The notes under the pieces are model-generated. The model did no database searches. It was given only the letters and a program-made list of their open reading frames with translations, and was not told where the DNA came from. A program made the translations under genes and the position numbers. A stretch of DNA of 64,000 bases, taken from the sequence record NC_054922.1; one strand, 5' to 3'. Positions 11,631 through 63,228 of the stretch are shown piece after piece. Every line of letters starts with the position of its first letter. Position 1 is the stretch's first letter. The stretch is from Escherichia phage vB_EcoM_KAW1E185.

Positions 11631-11638
11631 TATAAATA
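11631..11638 (+). promoter_or_regulatory. late promoter TATAAATA for gene 53
   Basis: Exact TATAAATA about 29 nt upstream of the gene 53 ATG. Confidence 0.6.
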
Positions 11639-11645
11639 GATAATA

Positions 11646-11653
11646 TATTTATA
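11646..11653 (-). promoter_or_regulatory. late promoter TATAAATA (minus strand) for genes 4-2-3
   Basis: Plus strand tatttata; divergent from the gene 53 promoter. Confidence 0.55.
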
Positions 11654-48855: not shown

Positions 48856-48867
48856 TATTTATAAATA
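48856..48867. promoter_or_regulatory. overlapping divergent late promoters (minus-strand TATAAATA for 26-25, plus-strand TATAAATA for 51)
   Basis: Plus strand tatttataaata; minus-strand element 48856..48863, plus-strand element 48860..48867. Confidence 0.55.
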
Positions 48868-54159: not shown

Positions 54160-55124
54160 TGTATTCTTTAGAGGAATTTAATAATCAAGCAATAAACGCA
54201 GATTTTCAACGTAATAATATGTTTAGCTGCGTTTTTGCGACAACTCCATCAACTAAAAGCTCTTCGTTGATAAGTTCAATTAGTAACTTTTCTTATAATA
54301 ACTTGGGTCTAAATTCAGATTGGTTAGGATTGACTCAAGGCGATATTAATCAGGGAATTACCACGCTAATTACTGCTGGCACACAAAAACTGATAAGAAA
54401 ATCAGGGGTTAGTAAATATCTTATTGGTGCCATGAGTCAACGTACAGTTCAAAGTTTATTGGGCTCATTTACAGTTGGTACATATTTAATTGACTTCTTT
54501 AACATGGCATATAACTCATCTGGATTGATGATATATTCTGTAAAAATGCCAGAGAATAGATTATCCTATGAAACTGACTGGAACTATAATTCTCCTAATA
54601 TTCGTATAACTGGGAGAGAATTAGACCCTTTGGTTATTTCATTTAGGATGGATTCAGAAGCTTGTAACTATCGTGCGATGCAAGACTGGGTTAACGCTGT
54701 TCAAGACCCAGTAACTGGATTGCGTGCTTTGCCACAAGATGTCGAGGCAGATATTCAGGTTAATCTTCATGCTCGTAATGGATTACCTCATACTGCGGTG
54801 ATGTTCACTGGATGCATTCCAGTGTCAGTGAGCGCTCCTGAGTTATCATATGATGGAGATAACCAAATAACTACATTTGATGTTACTTTTGCGTATAGAG
54901 TCATGCAGGCTGGGTCGGTTGATAGACAAGCTGCGCTTGAGTGGCTTGAATCTGCTGCTATAAATGGCATTCAAAGCGTTCTCGGAAATAGTGGAGGTGT
55001 TACTGGATTATCTAATTCGCTTTCACGACTTAGTAGATTAGGGGGAACTGCTGGAAGCATTTCAAACATTAATACTATGACAGGAATTGTCAATTCGCAA
55101 AGTAAAATATTAGGAGCAATATAA
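54159..55124 (+). CDS. 54: gp54 tail tube initiator
   Basis: 321 aa; T4 gp54 position. Confidence 0.93.
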   Translation: MYSLEEFNNQAINADFQRNNMFSCVFATTPSTKSSSLISSISNFSYNNLGLNSDWLGLTQGDINQGITTLITAGTQKLIRKSGVSKYLIGAMSQRTVQSLLGSFTVGTYLIDFFNMAYNSSGLMIYSVKMPENRLSYETDWNYNSPNIRITGRELDPLVISFRMDSEACNYRAMQDWVNAVQDPVTGLRALPQDVEADIQVNLHARNGLPHTAVMFTGCIPVSVSAPELSYDGDNQITTFDVTFAYRVMQAGSVDRQAALEWLESAAINGIQSVLGNSGGVTGLSNSLSRLSRLGGTAGSISNINTMTGIVNSQSKILGAI

Positions 55125-55128
55125 CAAT

Positions 55129-55158
55129 GGGGACCGAAAGGTCCCCATATTTTTATTT
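55129..55158 (+). terminator. intrinsic terminator after gene 54
   Basis: Hairpin GGGGACC-GAAA-GGTCCCC followed by a T-rich run. Confidence 0.7.
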
Positions 55159-55443
55159 ACGGAATGAAATAAAAGCAGCAACTGAAGCAACTAAACTGTC
55201 TTCAATATAAACTTCAATTTTTACCGGAGCTTCTGACTCAAATTTACCTGTTACTACACCTTGGAAAATGCTTTCAGTCTGCTCTGGCTTTGAAAAATTT
55301 TCAGAAGGAAAAATTCCGAACTTTTTATCTGTTCCAAAAATTTTGATAAATTCATCATAAACTGCTTCATTAAAAGCATTATCAGCAGGAATAACGCCTT
55401 CAACTACAAGTTCTTGACCTAAAAAGCGCAAAGAAGATTTCAT
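55153..55443 (-). CDS. hypothetical protein, 96 aa, downstream of alt
   Basis: ORF track. Confidence 0.6.
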   Translation of the reverse strand: MKSSLRFLGQELVVEGVIPADNAFNEAVYDEFIKIFGTDKKFGIFPSENFSKPEQTESIFQGVVTGKFESEAPVKIEVYIEDSLVASVAAFISFRK

Positions 55444-55503
55444 TTTGTGTTCCTCATGTTATGTAAGTAAAATTATTATAACACAACACGAGGGACTTGT
55501 AAA

Positions 55504-57564
55504 CTACATCTTAAACTTTTTAGACATTCCGTCGATGTTAACCAAAGAAGCTAAGATTTGAGAAACTTCGTTTTCCTCTTCTTTTGATTCTTCTACAAGG
55601 AATTGATTAAATCCAGTCATTGGACGAACTTCACCAGTTTCCATCAGATGGTCGCCATCATATACCGATTCTTCTAATTGTTCAGAAGGAGGAACGATTG
55701 TGCCTTCGATTAAATACTTGTTATAAGCAGTTTCTTTCATCATGTACGTGCTCACTTTATTAATCTTCAGCAAAATTCCACGCGGTAGAATAACTTCAGC
55801 TTCTGTTGCTATTCCGAGACTTCCTGGATATACAACATTAACTTTATGAGCTCCATCAATTGCCCATCCTATTTGAACTTTAACGTATTCAGGATTTTCT
55901 TTATACGCTCTTATTTCGTTTGGATTAATAGTTATTCCTTCTTCATTTTTATCAACCGTTAATTCGTTACGAGCTTCTGGTTCTAAAAGACCAATACCAG
56001 CATGTGTAATTCCAAAACGCCCAAAAATGATAGGAGTTAAAGAAGTAGATACAAAATTTCTGAAATAGAACACTTTATTTTTAACTAGCGCTTCGTATAT
56101 AGGAGCAGTCATACTTTGAGCACGATAAACTGTAATGCCTTCCGGTATGCGGTCACCATTTTCAAAAGCTGAATCTAAATTATTTATAGCAGATTCAATT
56201 TCTTTTTCACTCATTACATCATATCGTTCTGGATTGTAACGACCTAAAAGAAGATTATTGATGTCAGTATATCCTGAACCACAATACTCTCTAATGCCGC
56301 GCTTTTGTGATGGAGTATATTTAGAACCATCACGGGCAATAGTAATATCAATCATTGGACCTGCACCAATTCCAGAAAAACTATAAATCATTCTTTTGAG
56401 GAATTTAGTTTTTGCTGCGTTCCAGGAATTTTTAGTCATTTCTTCCCAGACTTCATCTGGCTGCCCTTTACGAGTTTTATTATGTTTATCAAGCCAATTA
56501 TCTTTATATTCTTCAAAGAGTTGATTAACAGCTGCTGCGTATTTCTCTAAACATTTTATTGAAGTAGTTGGTTCATTTTTAATCGCATTAAGAATTACAT
56601 CTTTAATTTTTTCAGAAACTTCATTAACCTCACTTTTTGAAAAGAATTTATAGTCATAATGAAGTTCATTCGCAGTTCCTTCGGCAATAATTTTTGCTGC
56701 CTTAGTTTTAGAAGCTAATGAATTAATTCCAAGCTTCATTTCTTCTGCTTCGGGAATTAAAGGAGCGGTAGCAGGTTTATTGAAATTAGCTGCGGTAGAT
56801 TCATACTTCTGGAATAATTCACTTTCAAATCTAGAAGATTCCAATGATTGACTTTGCGCAATTGCTCTACGGGAAATTTTAACTTTAACGATTACAGCTT
56901 GGTCAGAACGTTTATCATTTTCTTGTGCAATAGATGCTGCAATTGCCTCATTTTTAGTTACTTGAGCTCCAGTATCTTTATTGATATAAACATCGCCGAC
57001 TTTCGATTCAACTTTAGTAAAGAGCTCGGTACTAATTTCCGGAACTCCTGGAATGTCTTCTAGTGATACATTTTTGCGATGTATAAGAATATATGCATAC
57101 TTTTTATCATAATCCCAGAGTTCCTTAAGAAGGACGTATCTGCCACCTGAACGACTACGGATAAGTCTATCAGCAATAACTTGAATTTGTCGAGCTTGAC
57201 CAGCGGTTTTAGACTTAAGAATACGAAGCATACAAGCATCAATTTTATACTGACGCATTGTTTGCATTGCAACAGTAAAAACTGAATTGATATAATTAAT
57301 TGGGCTTGGACCGAGACCTTTTAATTTAGCAATTGAACCTTTGGCAGTTAATGTAAAAGGAACAATATGCATCATTTTATCGCCCATCTTTAAATCGCGA
57401 TTAGTATCACCTCCAGATGTATAGGTGCATAAACGAAAGCCTGGTTGTTCAATTGCATCATCAACACGAACTGAAAAAATTTGTGGTATTTTCTTCTTTG
57501 GATTTAAGTTTGTAATCGGAAGAGTAGTATCTTCGTCAAATAATTCTGTAATGAGTTCCATCAT
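55504..57564 (-). CDS. alt: Alt, packaged ADP-ribosyltransferase that modifies host RNA polymerase
   Basis: 686 aa; position between gene 54 and DNA ligase; length close to T4 Alt. Confidence 0.9.
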   Translation of the reverse strand: MMELITELFDEDTTLPITNLNPKKKIPQIFSVRVDDAIEQPGFRLCTYTSGGDTNRDLKMGDKMMHIVPFTLTAKGSIAKLKGLGPSPINYINSVFTVAMQTMRQYKIDACMLRILKSKTAGQARQIQVIADRLIRSRSGGRYVLLKELWDYDKKYAYILIHRKNVSLEDIPGVPEISTELFTKVESKVGDVYINKDTGAQVTKNEAIAASIAQENDKRSDQAVIVKVKISRRAIAQSQSLESSRFESELFQKYESTAANFNKPATAPLIPEAEEMKLGINSLASKTKAAKIIAEGTANELHYDYKFFSKSEVNEVSEKIKDVILNAIKNEPTTSIKCLEKYAAAVNQLFEEYKDNWLDKHNKTRKGQPDEVWEEMTKNSWNAAKTKFLKRMIYSFSGIGAGPMIDITIARDGSKYTPSQKRGIREYCGSGYTDINNLLLGRYNPERYDVMSEKEIESAINNLDSAFENGDRIPEGITVYRAQSMTAPIYEALVKNKVFYFRNFVSTSLTPIIFGRFGITHAGIGLLEPEARNELTVDKNEEGITINPNEIRAYKENPEYVKVQIGWAIDGAHKVNVVYPGSLGIATEAEVILPRGILLKINKVSTYMMKETAYNKYLIEGTIVPPSEQLEESVYDGDHLMETGEVRPMTGFNQFLVEESKEEENEVSQILASLVNIDGMSKKFKM

Positions 57565-57585
57565 ATCCTCTCTAGTGTTTATTCT

Positions 57586-57593
57586 ATTTATAA
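57586..57593 (-). promoter_or_regulatory. late promoter TATAAATA (minus strand) upstream of alt
   Basis: Plus strand tatttata about 22 nt upstream of the alt ATG, next to hairpin AAAGGCC-CGAA-GGCCTTT. Confidence 0.45.
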
Positions 57594-57613
57594 AATTAAA
57601 GGCCCGAAGGCCT

Positions 57614-57802
57614 TTAATAATCTATTGGTAAGAGAGTACGATATATTTCAAACTTTGGACCTTTTTCATAGGCATCAAATGTTTCTGTGAATTTATTATA
57701 AGCATATGCATCTATAAATTCAATCATAATTTGTGATACAGAAGTAGAAACATCTCCACCTTCTTTTTGAGCAACGACAATTGTTTCTAAGTAAGCTTTC
57801 AT
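57614..57802 (-). CDS. hypothetical small protein, 62 aa
   Basis: ORF track; start overlaps the ligase stop. Confidence 0.55.
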   Translation of the reverse strand: MKAYLETIVVAQKEGGDVSTSVSQIMIEFIDAYAYNKFTETFDAYEKGPKFEIYRTLLPIDY

Positions 57803-59262
57803 AGACCAGTTACCTCATGAAAATCACCAAATACATCCTCGAATGTATTAGCTTTAGTTTTATCTTCACGTAAACGAATCGCAATCGGAAGAAATAATTT
57901 AACGTAATCAGTGCGGCCATCAGATTTTAGCCAACCGTTGCATTCGCACTCTAGAATTTTTCCAATATAATAATTTTGGTTTTCCATAATGCGAGTACGG
58001 TCAAGTTCATGTGATTTTACACCGGCTTTATCTTTTAAGCCTGAACCAGCATTTACTTTAATTTTTCCACACTCTGATTCAAGAATAAATCCACCTGCTT
58101 TAGTAGGGTCTTTACGGTGAGGATAAATTCCTACAATTTTTAAATCAACATCAATTACTTCTTTAAATTTATAGAGATTTTTTGAACGAGCATTTTCCCA
58201 CAATCCATCGGTATTTTTGAGAATAATACCTTCAAGACCTTGGTCAATATACTTTTTATAAATTACCTTAGCTTCATCTAGGTTATTTACTACCTGGTTT
58301 TCAATTAAAATTACTTTATCATATCCTGATGTCATTTGTTCTAGTTTAGAAAAACGTACATCATATTTTAAACGAAACGCCGGAAGACCGTATATTTCTA
58401 CCAACGGAACATAATCCCAGACCTGAAACTTCATGCATTGAGCTTCTTTTTCTGAAATAGTTCCCTTTAAAGATTTATTAGCGATTCCATTAGAAGCAGT
58501 ACGAGATTCCGCTACTTCGGCGAATTCTTTAGCTTTACTAATTTCAGGATAATCATCAAAAAGAAAATCTAGGCCTTCTGGTTCCTTTTTAACTTGCTCA
58601 TGGTATACCAATTCGCCATCAATTAACACACCTTCTGGATGAATCTGGCGGGCTTCAGCAGTCATTTTGATTAATTCTTCCTTAAGAAGATCTAATCCTA
58701 GATATTCATTACCAGCTCGTGATAAAAGACGAACATCATCTAATTCATCGCCTCGGACTTCAGCAAAACACCTGGCTCCATCTGCTTTTAACTGTGCAAA
58801 GGCTGGAAATTTGATATTCTTACTAATGCCCTTTTCATCATAAGAACTTGCCAGCATTTGAGGTTGTTCAGGAATTAAACCTGGCCAAACTTTGTTTGCA
58901 ATAGATACTGAAGCACCGCATTCAAGGTCTCGCATCATCACTCGACGCAAAACTTCAACATCATCCTTTTTACCATCGGTGATATATCCAGTCAATTCCT
59001 CAATTGCAGCATTTCCGGTCAATTTCCGAGTAGCTAACGTGAATTCAATGAAGTCAAGCATATCGGTAATGGTCAGCATTCCAAAACTCTGGGTAGCAAT
59101 ACCAGGTTTAGGCCATTTCTTGATATAATACTGTAACCCACGAGAATAAGTTAGACGATATACTCGTTTAAGCAATTCATTATCTTTATTCTTTTCAAGA
59201 ATTGCTTGCTTCTGCTTAGTTGATCCAATAGATGCTATTTCATTCAGAATTTTAAGAATCAT
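57799..59262 (-). CDS. 30: gp30 ATP-dependent DNA ligase
   Basis: 487 aa; adenylylation motif KADGAR; N-terminus recognised as T4 DNA ligase. Confidence 0.97.
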   Translation of the reverse strand: MILKILNEIASIGSTKQKQAILEKNKDNELLKRVYRLTYSRGLQYYIKKWPKPGIATQSFGMLTITDMLDFIEFTLATRKLTGNAAIEELTGYITDGKKDDVEVLRRVMMRDLECGASVSIANKVWPGLIPEQPQMLASSYDEKGISKNIKFPAFAQLKADGARCFAEVRGDELDDVRLLSRAGNEYLGLDLLKEELIKMTAEARQIHPEGVLIDGELVYHEQVKKEPEGLDFLFDDYPEISKAKEFAEVAESRTASNGIANKSLKGTISEKEAQCMKFQVWDYVPLVEIYGLPAFRLKYDVRFSKLEQMTSGYDKVILIENQVVNNLDEAKVIYKKYIDQGLEGIILKNTDGLWENARSKNLYKFKEVIDVDLKIVGIYPHRKDPTKAGGFILESECGKIKVNAGSGLKDKAGVKSHELDRTRIMENQNYYIGKILECECNGWLKSDGRTDYVKLFLPIAIRLREDKTKANTFEDVFGDFHEVTGL

Positions 59263-59528
59263 TGTTCATCCTTCAGAGTTTGATTTACAGCTCTATTATA
59301 AATCAATTCATCATTAAGCTCAGTCAAAGACCTATGATATGTAGTTCTAACTTTATTTCCTTGCATCCAGTGCTTGACGTAAATGAAACCTTGCTCTACA
59401 CATTTTTTAAAAATTCGTTCGTCTTTTTGAGCTCGGAATTCTGGATTGCATCTAAAAAATTGATTTACGTGACCGTAATCACGTGTAGTATTACCTTCAT
59501 TTTCATAAATAGTGTGAACGACAAACAT
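59259..59528 (-). CDS. hypothetical protein, 89 aa (position of T4 30.1)
   Basis: ORF track. Confidence 0.6.
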   Translation of the reverse strand: MFVVHTIYENEGNTTRDYGHVNQFFRCNPEFRAQKDERIFKKCVEQGFIYVKHWMQGNKVRTTYHRSLTELNDELIYNRAVNQTLKDEQ

Positions 59529-60367
59529 TAGAATGCTCCTTGGAAAATATTATCACCACTAGTAGGTCTATTATACAAATACTCTATGCCACCAGGTTTA
59601 ATATAGTTCCATGTCTGAAACGGATGTGTCTGATATGGATGATATAGATGATTATAAGGATTAAATCCAGGAGTTCTCCAGGTAGTATTCCAACGAAAAG
59701 AATCGTTTTTAATCATCTTTTCAATTGCATCTTTTATAGCTTTTTCACTATCAAAACTTTCTTTATTTTCCTTCGGTGAAAAAAGCTTATTTTCTACATC
59801 ATTCCATGTATAAACTCGCTGTGCAGTTTTTGGAATACTGTCACGCTCTCCTCGAGCCATCCAATAAACAGGAACATTTAATATTTCACTCGCGTGATCG
59901 CAGTGGTGAGCGAGATCGTCAATATAACAAATTACGTTATATTTTTCTTTTGCCTTTTTGAACAGCTCTTCTTTTGAAGAATCATGACCACACATCATTA
60001 CTTCTGAGAAGGCACCAGGAAAAAGAGCATTCAAATTAAATTGACGATTCAGCAGAGCGTCAATAGAATCACCCAATGCTGTAACAGCTACAAAATTATA
60101 ATCTTCTTTTAATTTGTTAATTACACACAGAGCATCTTTATATGGAGACAAGTAACGAATAAAATCTGAACGATTGTATTTTTCAATTAACTTGACACCA
60201 AGTTCTTCATCACAATTAAAGAGTTTACCTGGAGAAATAAATTTCTCATCCTGGATCATTTTTAAAATATGTTCTAACGGAAGATTATATTTCTGAGCAA
60301 AATAAGGAAGGCCTGATTGCCAGCTTAAACATACTCCATCAATATCAGTTAAAATAGTAGGCTTCAT
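59528..60367 (-). CDS. HAD-superfamily hydrolase-like protein, 279 aa (position of T4 30.2)
   Basis: N-terminal motif ILTDIDGV (HAD motif I, DxDG) and later YIDD. Confidence 0.65.
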   Translation of the reverse strand: MKPTILTDIDGVCLSWQSGLPYFAQKYNLPLEHILKMIQDEKFISPGKLFNCDEELGVKLIEKYNRSDFIRYLSPYKDALCVINKLKEDYNFVAVTALGDSIDALLNRQFNLNALFPGAFSEVMMCGHDSSKEELFKKAKEKYNVICYIDDLAHHCDHASEILNVPVYWMARGERDSIPKTAQRVYTWNDVENKLFSPKENKESFDSEKAIKDAIEKMIKNDSFRWNTTWRTPGFNPYNHLYHPYQTHPFQTWNYIKPGGIEYLYNRPTSGDNIFQGAF

Positions 60368-60828
60368 AGAGAGTCTCTTAATAGGTTTAACACATCAATA
60401 AATTCAGCTTCGGTTAGTATTGTATCATCTTTTGTTAGACCACTAGCCATGCTGTGCTTCAAAACTTTTCCTTTCGAGGCTTGTAATGCATCGCGAAAGC
60501 CCTTGTTTTGGATCGCTGCTTCAAAATATGCATTTGTGTATAATTCTTTCCACGCTGGAGAGTATCTTGAAAACGGAACTCCAAGCCAGAAGAGGGTCCC
60601 ACGGTCCTGAGCTCTAGCATAAGCTCGTCCAGCTTGTTGGGCGGCAAGCCCGGATAACCCAAATATACGTCTTTGATGTTCAACATTTTTCACCTTACAC
60701 CCTTGGAGGAATCCTTCGAGACCTCCAAATTGGATACCATCCATAACAAAAGGCCATTGGGCGAAATTACTTAATGCGCATGATGGCCATCTAAAATTGC
60801 TTCTTATCTCTAGCTCAGACATTTTCAA
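60364..60828 (-). CDS. NADAR (YbiA-like) domain protein, 154 aa (position of T4 30.3)
   Basis: LSNFAQWPFVMDG...LEGFLQGCKV aligns by eye with E. coli YbiA DFSNFAAWPIKVDG...SEHYFQAQKF; the C-terminal half is also collinear. Confidence 0.65.
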   Translation of the reverse strand: MKMSELEIRSNFRWPSCALSNFAQWPFVMDGIQFGGLEGFLQGCKVKNVEHQRRIFGLSGLAAQQAGRAYARAQDRGTLFWLGVPFSRYSPAWKELYTNAYFEAAIQNKGFRDALQASKGKVLKHSMASGLTKDDTILTEAEFIDVLNLLRDSL

Positions 60829-61021
60829 TACTTATAATTTCAACATCAGCCCAATGACCATAGCAAGGAAGACGAAATTCAACTGGCCAGTTAGGGTCCT
60901 TTTCTAATATAATAGACTCAACTTGTGGTTCTTCGTGTTCATCAGTATATGGATTTTTATCTGTTACTTTATATGTGACCTTAATGTACTGAATTCCAAA
61001 AATCTTATTAATTATATTCAT
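60815..61021 (-). CDS. hypothetical protein, 68 aa
   Basis: ORF track; overlapping operon. Confidence 0.5.
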   Translation of the reverse strand: MNIINKIFGIQYIKVTYKVTDKNPYTDEHEEPQVESIILEKDPNWPVEFRLPCYGHWADVEIISIENV

Positions 61022-61215
61022 ACTAATTCCTTTAATCCGTAAATAGGAGATAATTCATCGCCCATACGAAGGTCTTCATTTCCATCTACCCAGGAAACAA
61101 TATAAGCCTCTTTTATTTGAATACCACTCCATTTAAATGGAGGTAGAACCTTAGAAATTAATCCAGGTATACCAACTCCCTTTAATTCAACAGTTTGACC
61201 TAAAAAGAATTTCAT
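61018..61215 (-). CDS. hypothetical protein, 65 aa
   Basis: ORF track; overlapping operon. Confidence 0.5.
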   Translation of the reverse strand: MKFFLGQTVELKGVGIPGLISKVLPPFKWSGIQIKEAYIVSWVDGNEDLRMGDELSPIYGLKELV

Positions 61216-61526
61216 TAGAACCTCATCTGAAAGCCATGCGATTTAACATTACCGCCGCCAATATCAGAAATATTAATTTCACGCGCAATTGAAGGGTCAA
61301 TGTCAATTTCACGATTGAGTTTAGTGATAGCTAAAGTATCGCGCCCATTTACAGTACGGAACTTTAAAGGACATACTACATTAACGTAGTTTTTAATCGA
61401 TTCACTAGTAGGTTGCAAATGAGCAGGAAGGTCTTTAGGCGCCTTAGAGAAAACTACTTCGCAGAAGTTTTTACGAGTATCAAAATAAGTAGTCATAAAC
61501 ATAGTATTTTCCTCAGTAAGGGCCAA
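61215..61526 (-). CDS. hypothetical protein, 103 aa
   Basis: ORF track; overlapping operon. Confidence 0.55.
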   Translation of the reverse strand: MALTEENTMFMTTYFDTRKNFCEVVFSKAPKDLPAHLQPTSESIKNYVNVVCPLKFRTVNGRDTLAITKLNREIDIDPSIAREINISDIGGGNVKSHGFQMRF

Positions 61527-63081: not shown

Positions 63082-63228
63082 TTAAAAATTCTCGTTAGAG
63101 ATTAAAACTCGGTAGTCACGTTCTTCTGAATTTCATCTTCTTTCGACAGATCTCTCAGTTGTAGACTACCACATAGAATTGTTCGGTTAACTTATTATTC
63201 CGACACCCAATTCATATTATTATTTATA

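Follow-up and report, generated by a model that had tools for sequence, protein, structure and literature searches.

What does the alt locus of Escherichia phage vB_EcoM_KAW1E185 encode, when would its product be made, and does that product act together with putative ADP-ribose-related proteins encoded nearby? We addressed these questions in a window of 64,000 nucleotides (nt; NC_054922.1) from this T4-like (Tequatrovirus) genome, in which the gene order of T4 is kept, with genes 27, 28, 29, 48 and 54 on the plus strand and alt.-3, alt, alt.1, 30 and 30.1-30.9 on the minus strand. As in T4, alt is located between ligase/alt.1 and alt.-3/gene 54, and the genes flanking it are 97-100% identical to those of T4. 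A preliminary description of the region had proposed a late promoter upstream of alt, late expression and packaging of Alt into capsids, and an ADP-ribosylation toolkit composed of Alt, a NADAR-like protein and a HAD-like protein. Its account of Alt and the late promoter was borne out by the present analysis, whereas the toolkit as a functional unit was not. We are highly confident that the region represents the alt locus of a Tequatrovirus with a single recombinant alt gene behind a terminator and a late box. Alt, together with its late expression and packaging, is already known from T4 and belongs to the textbooks; the only feature beyond them is the apparently chimeric nature of the gene, which is a variant of a known one.

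The alt gene and its recombinant product

An uninterrupted open reading frame (ORF) extends over 55504-57564 on the minus strand and codes for 686 amino acids (aa) from its first ATG (57564). The adjacent second ATG (57561), which yields 685 aa, is the start annotated in T4 and its relatives. It is favoured here as well, because the GAGG part (57567-57570) of a Shine-Dalgarno motif read from the sequence, GAGAGG (57567-57572, minus strand), lies 5 nt from the second ATG and merely 2 nt from the first. The resulting coding sequence (55504-57561, minus strand; 685 aa plus stop) was assigned to alt on the basis of Pfam PF03496, PHROG 802 and T4 gene order. Its product matches exactly YP_010071400.1/QBQ78481.1, recorded as 'Alt-like RNA polymerase ADP-ribosyltransferase' of vB_EcoM_KAW1E185. 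The 686-aa form hits PF03496 (ADP-ribosyltransferase exoenzyme) over aa 379-621 (E 6.9e-35; 120.6 bits against a cut-off of 23.4), and the PHROG 802 profile ('Alt-like') is matched from end to end (6e-267; positions 1-674 of 674).

The catalytic ADP-ribosyltransferase (ART) domain (55702-56430, minus strand) carries an intact R-S-ExE signature, as R480, S505-T506-S507 and E587/E589 are invariant in the Alt protein alignments. The closest PDB structures by sequence were CdtA, iota toxin Ia and BEC a, matched over aa 414-483. These clostridial binary-toxin ARTs and the VIP2 clade share the ART core and PF03496 with Alt, but they are secreted actin-modifying toxins, whereas the N-terminal half of Alt is specific to phages and the enzyme reaches its host from the capsid. 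The N-terminal domain (aa 1-240; 56842-57561, minus strand) is 99% identical to that of T4 Alt, gave no match in Pfam, and is presumed to be a head-incorporation module; AlphaFold2 (AF2) modelled aa 12-235 with a predicted local distance difference test score (pLDDT) of 70-90. Judged from its sequence, the product appears to be an Alt-family, head-packaged arginine ADP-ribosyltransferase, in agreement with the preliminary description and with what is established for T4. The chemistry of Alt yields arginine-linked ADP-ribose on proteins.

The protein looks like an in-frame chimera of two Alt paralogues: aa 1-595 match the upstream, T6-type (697-aa) paralogue of two-alt phages, and aa 596-685 match their downstream (685-aa) paralogue. 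Identities to the upstream and downstream paralogues are, respectively, 99.2% and 66.3% in aa 1-240, 97.1% and 10.9% in aa 241-410, 90.1% and 40.0% in aa 411-620 (a segment that spans the junction at 595/596), and 33.8% and 96.9% in aa 621-685. Among the alignment columns that distinguish the two parents, 379 are upstream-like and one is downstream-like before aa 595, and after it one is upstream-like and 69 are downstream-like (Fisher's test, P = 2e-79). The putative recombination junction falls in a stretch of 22 bases, CAGAAGCTGAAGTTATTCTACC (55784-55805, minus strand), which encodes the ExE motif and is identical in both parental paralogues in a four-sequence DNA alignment; the residues spanning the junction in the hybrid are ...EAEVILPRGILLK... 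The C-terminal 90 aa (596-685; 55507-55776, minus strand) are ~97% identical to the downstream paralogue of UGKSEcP2, and this tail is 34-36% identical to the upstream-type and T4 tails. The swapped segment comprises the last ~36 residues of the mature enzyme and the whole predicted C-terminal propeptide.

With the T6-type upstream paralogue (697 aa; T6 X69894, RB14, RB51 and UGKSEcP2 CAH1615537), Alt of vB_EcoM_KAW1E185 shares a 90% cluster and ~97-99% identity over aa 1-595, but its last 90 residues are swapped, it ends in ...MSKKFKM and not in ...PYKFVQG, and it is 12 residues shorter. To the downstream paralogue (685 aa; 'alt.-2' of ime09, UGKSEcP2 CAH1615535) it is 97% identical over aa 596-685, whereas the rest of that paralogue is absent (66% identity in the N-domain and 11-40% elsewhere). 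We propose that unequal, in-frame homologous exchange between tandem Alt paralogues, within the 22 identical ExE-coding bases, would have removed ~2.1 kb and left the upstream T6-type body joined to the last 90 codons of the downstream paralogue.

None of 534 matching records, drawn from a phage collection that lacks vB_EcoM_KAW1E185, shared the junction; the one colinear record, NIC06P2, has a different breakpoint. The NIC06P2-type Alt (687 aa; OZ035760, PJZ22170) is likewise a single in-frame fusion of an upstream body and a downstream tail, but its breakpoint lies ~40 codons later, within the conserved YDGDHLMETGEV patch of the C-terminal propeptide. The propeptide is consequently swapped only in part, whereas the whole predicted propeptide is exchanged in vB_EcoM_KAW1E185, and the mature enzyme of NIC06P2 would be wholly upstream-type. 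This later breakpoint is also present in a second public protein (P0231). On sequence grounds, the NIC06P2 hybrid appears to stem from an event independent of the chimera described here.

Many close relatives possess two tandem alt genes, encoding 697 and 685 aa. In these phages the second gene begins 3 nt downstream of the first and lacks a late box, so both would ride on one late promoter. Either a T4-type or a T6-type allele occupies the upstream slot, and either a full gene or a remnant the downstream one, and all combinations occur; sutha, for instance, has one alt gene and a 38-aa C-terminal remnant. T4 has one alt gene plus the N-terminal remnants of a second copy, alt.-1 and alt.-2, whereas vB_EcoM_KAW1E185 has none. 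It thus carries one chimeric Alt and no second paralogue where many close relatives have two. T4 Alt (NP_049811, 682 aa) shares with the chimera the R-S-ExE ART family, the ITE-6 site and an aligned C-terminal L-x-E site, but identity falls to 31% in aa 241-410, 53% in aa 411-620 and 36% in the tail. Because aa 241-595 are only 31-53% identical to T4 Alt between flanks of 97-100% identity, the middle and catalytic half can be regarded as a variable cassette in a conserved backbone.

That the alt locus can duplicate has been known already (PMC1524935), and tandem alt genes also occur outside Tequatrovirus, as the alta/altb pair of Dhakavirus and in Aeromonas phages. The second copy was devoid of its own late box in the pairs inspected, namely that of the Tequatrovirus UGKSEcP2 and that with altb in the Dhakavirus JS10. 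Alt sequences were also met under unexpected names. The end of the 'Staphylococcus phage SAJK-IND' record MG010123.1 (31880-32170) is 97.9% identical to Alt aa 589-685, and PJZ22170.1, a hybrid Alt of 687 aa, is attributed to Bacillus cereus, on a contig of 171.5 kb; in both cases T4-like phage sequence seems to have been mislabelled or mis-joined.

Transcription signals and the expected fate of Alt

The octamer TATAAATA, the core of a T4-type late promoter (dependent on gp55, gp33 and gp45), is present at 57585-57592 (minus strand) with all eight bases matching (8/8). The first ATG of alt follows it after 20 nt and the second after 23 nt, which agrees with the spacing of ~22 nt given in the preliminary description. 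Exact copies of the octamer are enriched in the window (26 sites against 9.95 +/- 2.87 in shuffled sequences, with 0 of 100 shuffles reaching 26). Half of them (13/26) are situated 14-38 nt upstream of the start of a same-strand, ATG-initiated ORF of 60 aa or more, compared with 5.5% of random positions (binomial test, P = 2e-10); the alt box belongs to this class. The box is identical in T4, UGKSEcP2, sutha and NIC06P2, and the equivalent site is labelled as a late promoter in the SA21RB record. In T4 relatives the first base of the late box varies, and the box occupies -13 to -6 (PMC1524935). If this spacing applies here, transcription would start (+1) at 57579 on the minus strand, giving an 18-nt leader to the ATG at 57561.

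Directly upstream of the box, the putative intrinsic terminator hairpin ATTAAAGGCC-TTCG-GGCCTTTAAT (57595-57618, minus strand) overlaps the stop codon of alt.1 (57614-57802, minus strand; Pfam 'Phage blade protein'), a gene 100% identical to its T4 counterpart and the last of the upstream gene-30 transcription unit. The RNA fold of the hairpin has a free energy of -14.5 kcal/mol (z -4.3), and none of 200 shuffles was equally stable. The equivalent hairpin is labelled as a rho-independent terminator in the SA21RB and ATK47 records; our terminator scan missed it because the scan stretched the stem to 10 pairs, into the T-tract. The hairpin thus appears, on the basis of its sequence, to close the early/middle transcription unit that lies upstream, immediately ahead of the late promoter.

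The block of hairpin, box, Shine-Dalgarno motif and ATGATG is shared with T4 except for a 5-nt indel, one extra GAATA repeat in T4, by which the leader of vB_EcoM_KAW1E185 is 5 nt shorter. Short indels also occur among other relatives in this part of the leader (57573-57584), and the start follows the box after 23 nt in vB_EcoM_KAW1E185, after 28 nt in T4 and after 31 nt in sutha, a distance that is evidently flexible.

The arrangement extends to distant phages, which were chosen from a tblastn search, as an N-terminal pattern search of viral contigs gave only five close relatives. In eight of the nine genera sampled, including T4's own, TATAAATA or CATAAATA is located 23-33 nt before the alt start. 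The former was found in Gelderlandvirus, Tegunavirus and Jiaodavirus, and the latter in Mosigvirus, Krischvirus, Dhakavirus and Lazarusvirus. A hairpin precedes the box in all of these except Lazarusvirus, in which the box is present without an obvious hairpin. Alt identity in the sampled genera is only 27-48%, yet the layout of hairpin, box and gene is kept.

A second exact copy of TATAAATA lies inside the alt frame (56181-56188, minus strand), where it encodes ...AINN..., and it also bears the label 'late promoter' in the SA21RB record. We considered it as an internal late promoter and rejected this, since T4 differs at the site (GCTATTGATAAT) and no in-frame start downstream would retain the catalytic Arg; the copy is most likely a chance match.

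What is known of T4 indicates how the gene would be used. T4 alt behaves as a late gene in time-resolved RNA-seq and proteomics and is switched on only after gp33, gp45 and gp55 (PMC9697503). T4 Alt is a non-essential prohead-core protein present in ~40 copies and ejected into the host (PMC9026906, PMC5694885), and gp21 cuts it at ITE-6 and LTE-619, with the loss of 63 C-terminal residues (PMC5694885). Motifs of the gp21 type are present at both ends of Alt in vB_EcoM_KAW1E185. The N-terminal propeptide MELITE (57544-57561, minus strand) contains a probable gp21 site, ITE-6, by identity with T4, and M1-D9 are invariant in 6/6 aligned Alt sequences. Near the other end, the gp21-type site L-E-E at 631 aligns with T4 LTE-619 and is followed by 54 residues, the predicted C-terminal propeptide (aa 632-685; 55507-55668, minus strand); by analogy, cleavage would occur after LEE-631.

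Combining these elements, we suggest that the hairpin at the end of alt.1 would stop early/middle transcription coming from the gene-30 block, and that TATAAATA would be read late by host RNA polymerase with gp55, gp33 and gp45 from a start near 57579. The mRNA would encode a 77-kDa Alt precursor. By analogy with T4, the precursor may enter the prohead core, where gp21 would trim it at ITE-6 and at the L-x-E site (LEE-631), and the mature Alt of ~70 kDa would remain in the head. In the next infection Alt would be ejected with the DNA and, using NAD+, ADP-ribosylate arginines of host proteins (RNA polymerase alpha in T4), which may favour the early promoters of the phage. For late timing this proposal draws on PMC9697503 and on annotations in related records. 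The claim of late expression and capsid packaging made in the preliminary description is consistent with the T4 data and with the conservation of the box, and would be an instance of established knowledge.

The 30.2 and 30.3 genes

The NADAR-like protein is gp30.3 (60364-60822, minus strand; Pfam PF08010 at 1.3e-69), that is AdfN, an anti-DarTG1 DNA de-ADP-ribosylase. Its sequence is 98% identical to T4 gp30.3/AdfN over the full length (152/152 aa) with no notable difference, and it is not truncated, for it retains the last 15 residues that are lost in the RB69-type protein. In vitro, ADP-ribose linked to guanine on DNA is hydrolysed by phage gp30.3 (PMC11125620); the protein has been renamed AdfN and protects T-even phages from DarTG1 (PMC11825919). 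The PHROG 652 profile has 296 positions, of which gp30.3 covers only 126-272; some phage NADARs of this family therefore have ~125 additional N-terminal residues, which gp30.3 of vB_EcoM_KAW1E185 lacks.

The HAD-like protein is gp30.2 (59528-60367, minus strand), in which motifs, AF2 and Foldseek point to a HAD-fold core (aa 1 to ~200) followed by a variable, unmodelled tail. Across 25 homologues, D8 and D10 of the DxD nucleophile motif and K132 are invariant, and T96, D150 and D151, the other residues of motifs II-IV, are at least 90% conserved. The AF2 model has a pLDDT of 82 overall and above 90 over aa 1-190. Foldseek searches against PDB returned 108 matches with E <= 1e-3, the top 50 of which are all HAD enzymes or designs derived from them; 5'(3')-deoxyribonucleotidases lead, with a best fold match of 2.8e-8. 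A profile built from the 25 homologues also pointed to a 5'(3')-deoxyribonucleotidase among PDB sequences, at a borderline E of 0.016. Scans of Pfam, NCBIfam and PHROG gave no function, and neither Pfam nor NCBIfam yielded a significant HAD match. As the curated sequence models miss gp30.2, its membership in the HAD group rests on fold and motifs. According to the model, gp30.2 appears to adopt a real, Rossmann-like HAD fold closest to 5'(3')-deoxyribonucleotidases.

The ~85 residues at the C-terminus of gp30.2 (aa ~195-279; 59528-59790) are poorly modelled; past aa 225 most pLDDT values fall below 50. This tail is missing from many homologues, which are ~200 aa long, and one homologue (P0014) carries a DUF3045 (gp30.1-like) domain; the appendages of the HAD core thus seem to vary. 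vB_EcoM_KAW1E185 is cited in a bioRxiv paper on phage phosphatases, which was set aside because it deals with Macro-domain phosphatases of other phages and not with gp30.2.

Alternative explanations and the surroundings of alt

The idea that Alt, gp30.3 and gp30.2 form a functional toolkit, in which one protein would write a modification, another erase it and a phosphatase act on it as well, has some footing. The NADAR-like and HAD-like genes indeed lie within ~3.3 kb of the alt start, as the preliminary description had noted, with all three genes within ~5.3 kb. Both family assignments are real, 30.3 and 30.2 overlap by 4 nt and are therefore probably co-translated, and that T4-like phages have NADAR genes near genes for ADP-ribosyltransferases has been remarked on earlier (PMC9503650). 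We nevertheless consider such a toolkit very unlikely. AdfN acts on guanine-ADP-ribose in DNA, against host DarT1, whereas Alt modifies protein arginines; the NADAR neighbour, in other words, already has a published and different role as an anti-DarTG1 factor. The fold of gp30.2 is nearest to deoxyribonucleotidases and not to ADP-ribose enzymes, which leaves it without a link to ADP-ribose. Neither 30.2 nor 30.3 has a TATAAATA upstream (beyond that of alt, the nearest minus-strand box in the upstream direction is at 63221), and the 30.x block holds sigma-70-like promoters. Since the terminator hairpin separates 30.2 and 30.3 from alt, they would belong to another transcription unit and another time class, with neither unit nor timing in common, and the closeness of the three genes corresponds to conserved T4 gene order. 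One might also suppose that TATAAATA upstream of alt is a chance match in AT-rich DNA and that alt is expressed by read-through from upstream early/middle promoters. About ten such octamers would be expected by chance in the window, and several do lie inside ORFs, including that at 56181-56188 in alt, which T4 lacks. This explanation is likewise very unlikely, as the position of the box relative to the terminator and the alt start is kept across genera in spite of the low Alt identity, a strong hairpin stands directly upstream, and in T4 both the RNA and the protein of alt are confined to the late phase (PMC9697503).

With alt taken as a late gene behind its own promoter, there remain two doubts about the chimera itself, each of which we judge improbable, to about the same degree. 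Instead of being a natural allele, the hybrid could have arisen because two tandem paralogues were collapsed in the assembly or because a deletion occurred when the phage was propagated in the laboratory: the exact protein comes from one contig only, the join falls within a short 22-nt repeat, and Alt is non-essential, so deletions are tolerated. The repeat is, however, below typical read length and assembly k-mers, and an independent hybrid with another breakpoint is present in NIC06P2 and in the second public contig (P0231). Moreover, T4 and sutha display partial-deletion states, because of which the alt locus clearly loses and fuses copies in nature. The hybrid could alternatively be packaged but catalytically dead, as the strands following ExE derive from a divergent paralogue, the swapped segment includes approximately the last 25 residues of the Pfam ART domain, and the parents are only ~40% identical in the catalytic region. 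Against this, the reading frame and all R-S-ExE residues are intact, the exchange took place at a homologous position of a shared fold, and the predicted gp21 site is kept.

Several points tell against a natural, active and late-expressed chimera, our preferred reading, and have to be set beside it. The exact hybrid protein is on record from a single contig, and the replacement of the last ~36 mature residues by those of the other paralogue might harm the function of the enzyme. When the complete Alt was modelled with AF2 from 17 close sequences, confidence was reached only for aa 12-235 and 281-395, and pLDDT is below 50 over the catalytic half, so the junction cannot be placed in the structure. 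The low identity to T4 Alt in aa 241-595 means that the targets may differ from those of T4 Alt; late timing, packaging, processing and targets in vB_EcoM_KAW1E185 are all extrapolated from homologues. Finally, Aeromonas phage 31, alone among representatives of the nine genera, has no recognisable box upstream of alt. In that phage a gene (ORF187c) ends 29 nt before alt, and its counterpart in the closely related phage 44RR has been named an alt duplication (PMC1524935); the upstream duplication may therefore account for the boxless alt.

It is attractive to speculate further, although we regard this as a rather unlikely generalisation, that the T-even alt locus is a cassette with two slots for injected ADP-ribosyltransferases, whose contents are reshuffled time and again when homologous exchange takes place at short conserved patches; the 22-mer encoding ExE would be one such patch, and the YDGDHLMETGEV patch of the propeptide, used in NIC06P2, another. 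If this were the case, the post-ExE strands and the C-terminal propeptide removed by gp21 would behave as interchangeable modules, and the chimera, more than a neutral outcome of a deletion, could differ in its target range, its activation or its packaging. As vB_EcoM_KAW1E185 serves as a test phage in NAD+-related defence studies, ADP-ribosylation phenotypes observed with it should be read in the knowledge that it has no second Alt paralogue and that its one Alt is only ~31-53% identical to T4 Alt over the middle and catalytic regions.

Downstream of alt, the next gene is alt.-3 (55153-55443, minus strand; DUF5498), 100% identical to T4 Alt.-3. It is preceded by a putative early-type sigma-70 promoter (55475-55504, minus strand; GTTTAC, 17 nt, TG-TATAAT; 11/12 match with an extended -10), whose -35 element overlaps the stop codon of alt; the equivalent site is labelled as a T4 early promoter in the SA21RB record. 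Between alt.-3 and gene 54, the terminator scan detected a bidirectional terminator of 9 pairs (55127-55148, both strands), annotated likewise in SA21RB, at which the late transcript of alt probably ends. A clean order of control elements is thus obtained: terminator, late box, alt, early promoter, alt.-3 and bidirectional terminator. An Rfam scan of 54500-61500 gave no match.

Elsewhere in the window, copies of TATAAATA stand back to back on opposite strands at two places, one pair at 11631-11638 (plus) and 11646-11653 (minus) and a second, overlapping pair at 48860-48867 (plus) and 48856-48863 (minus). Each box of both pairs lies 17-28 nt from a divergent ORF start, and these sites (11631-11653 and 48856-48867) look like divergent late promoter pairs.

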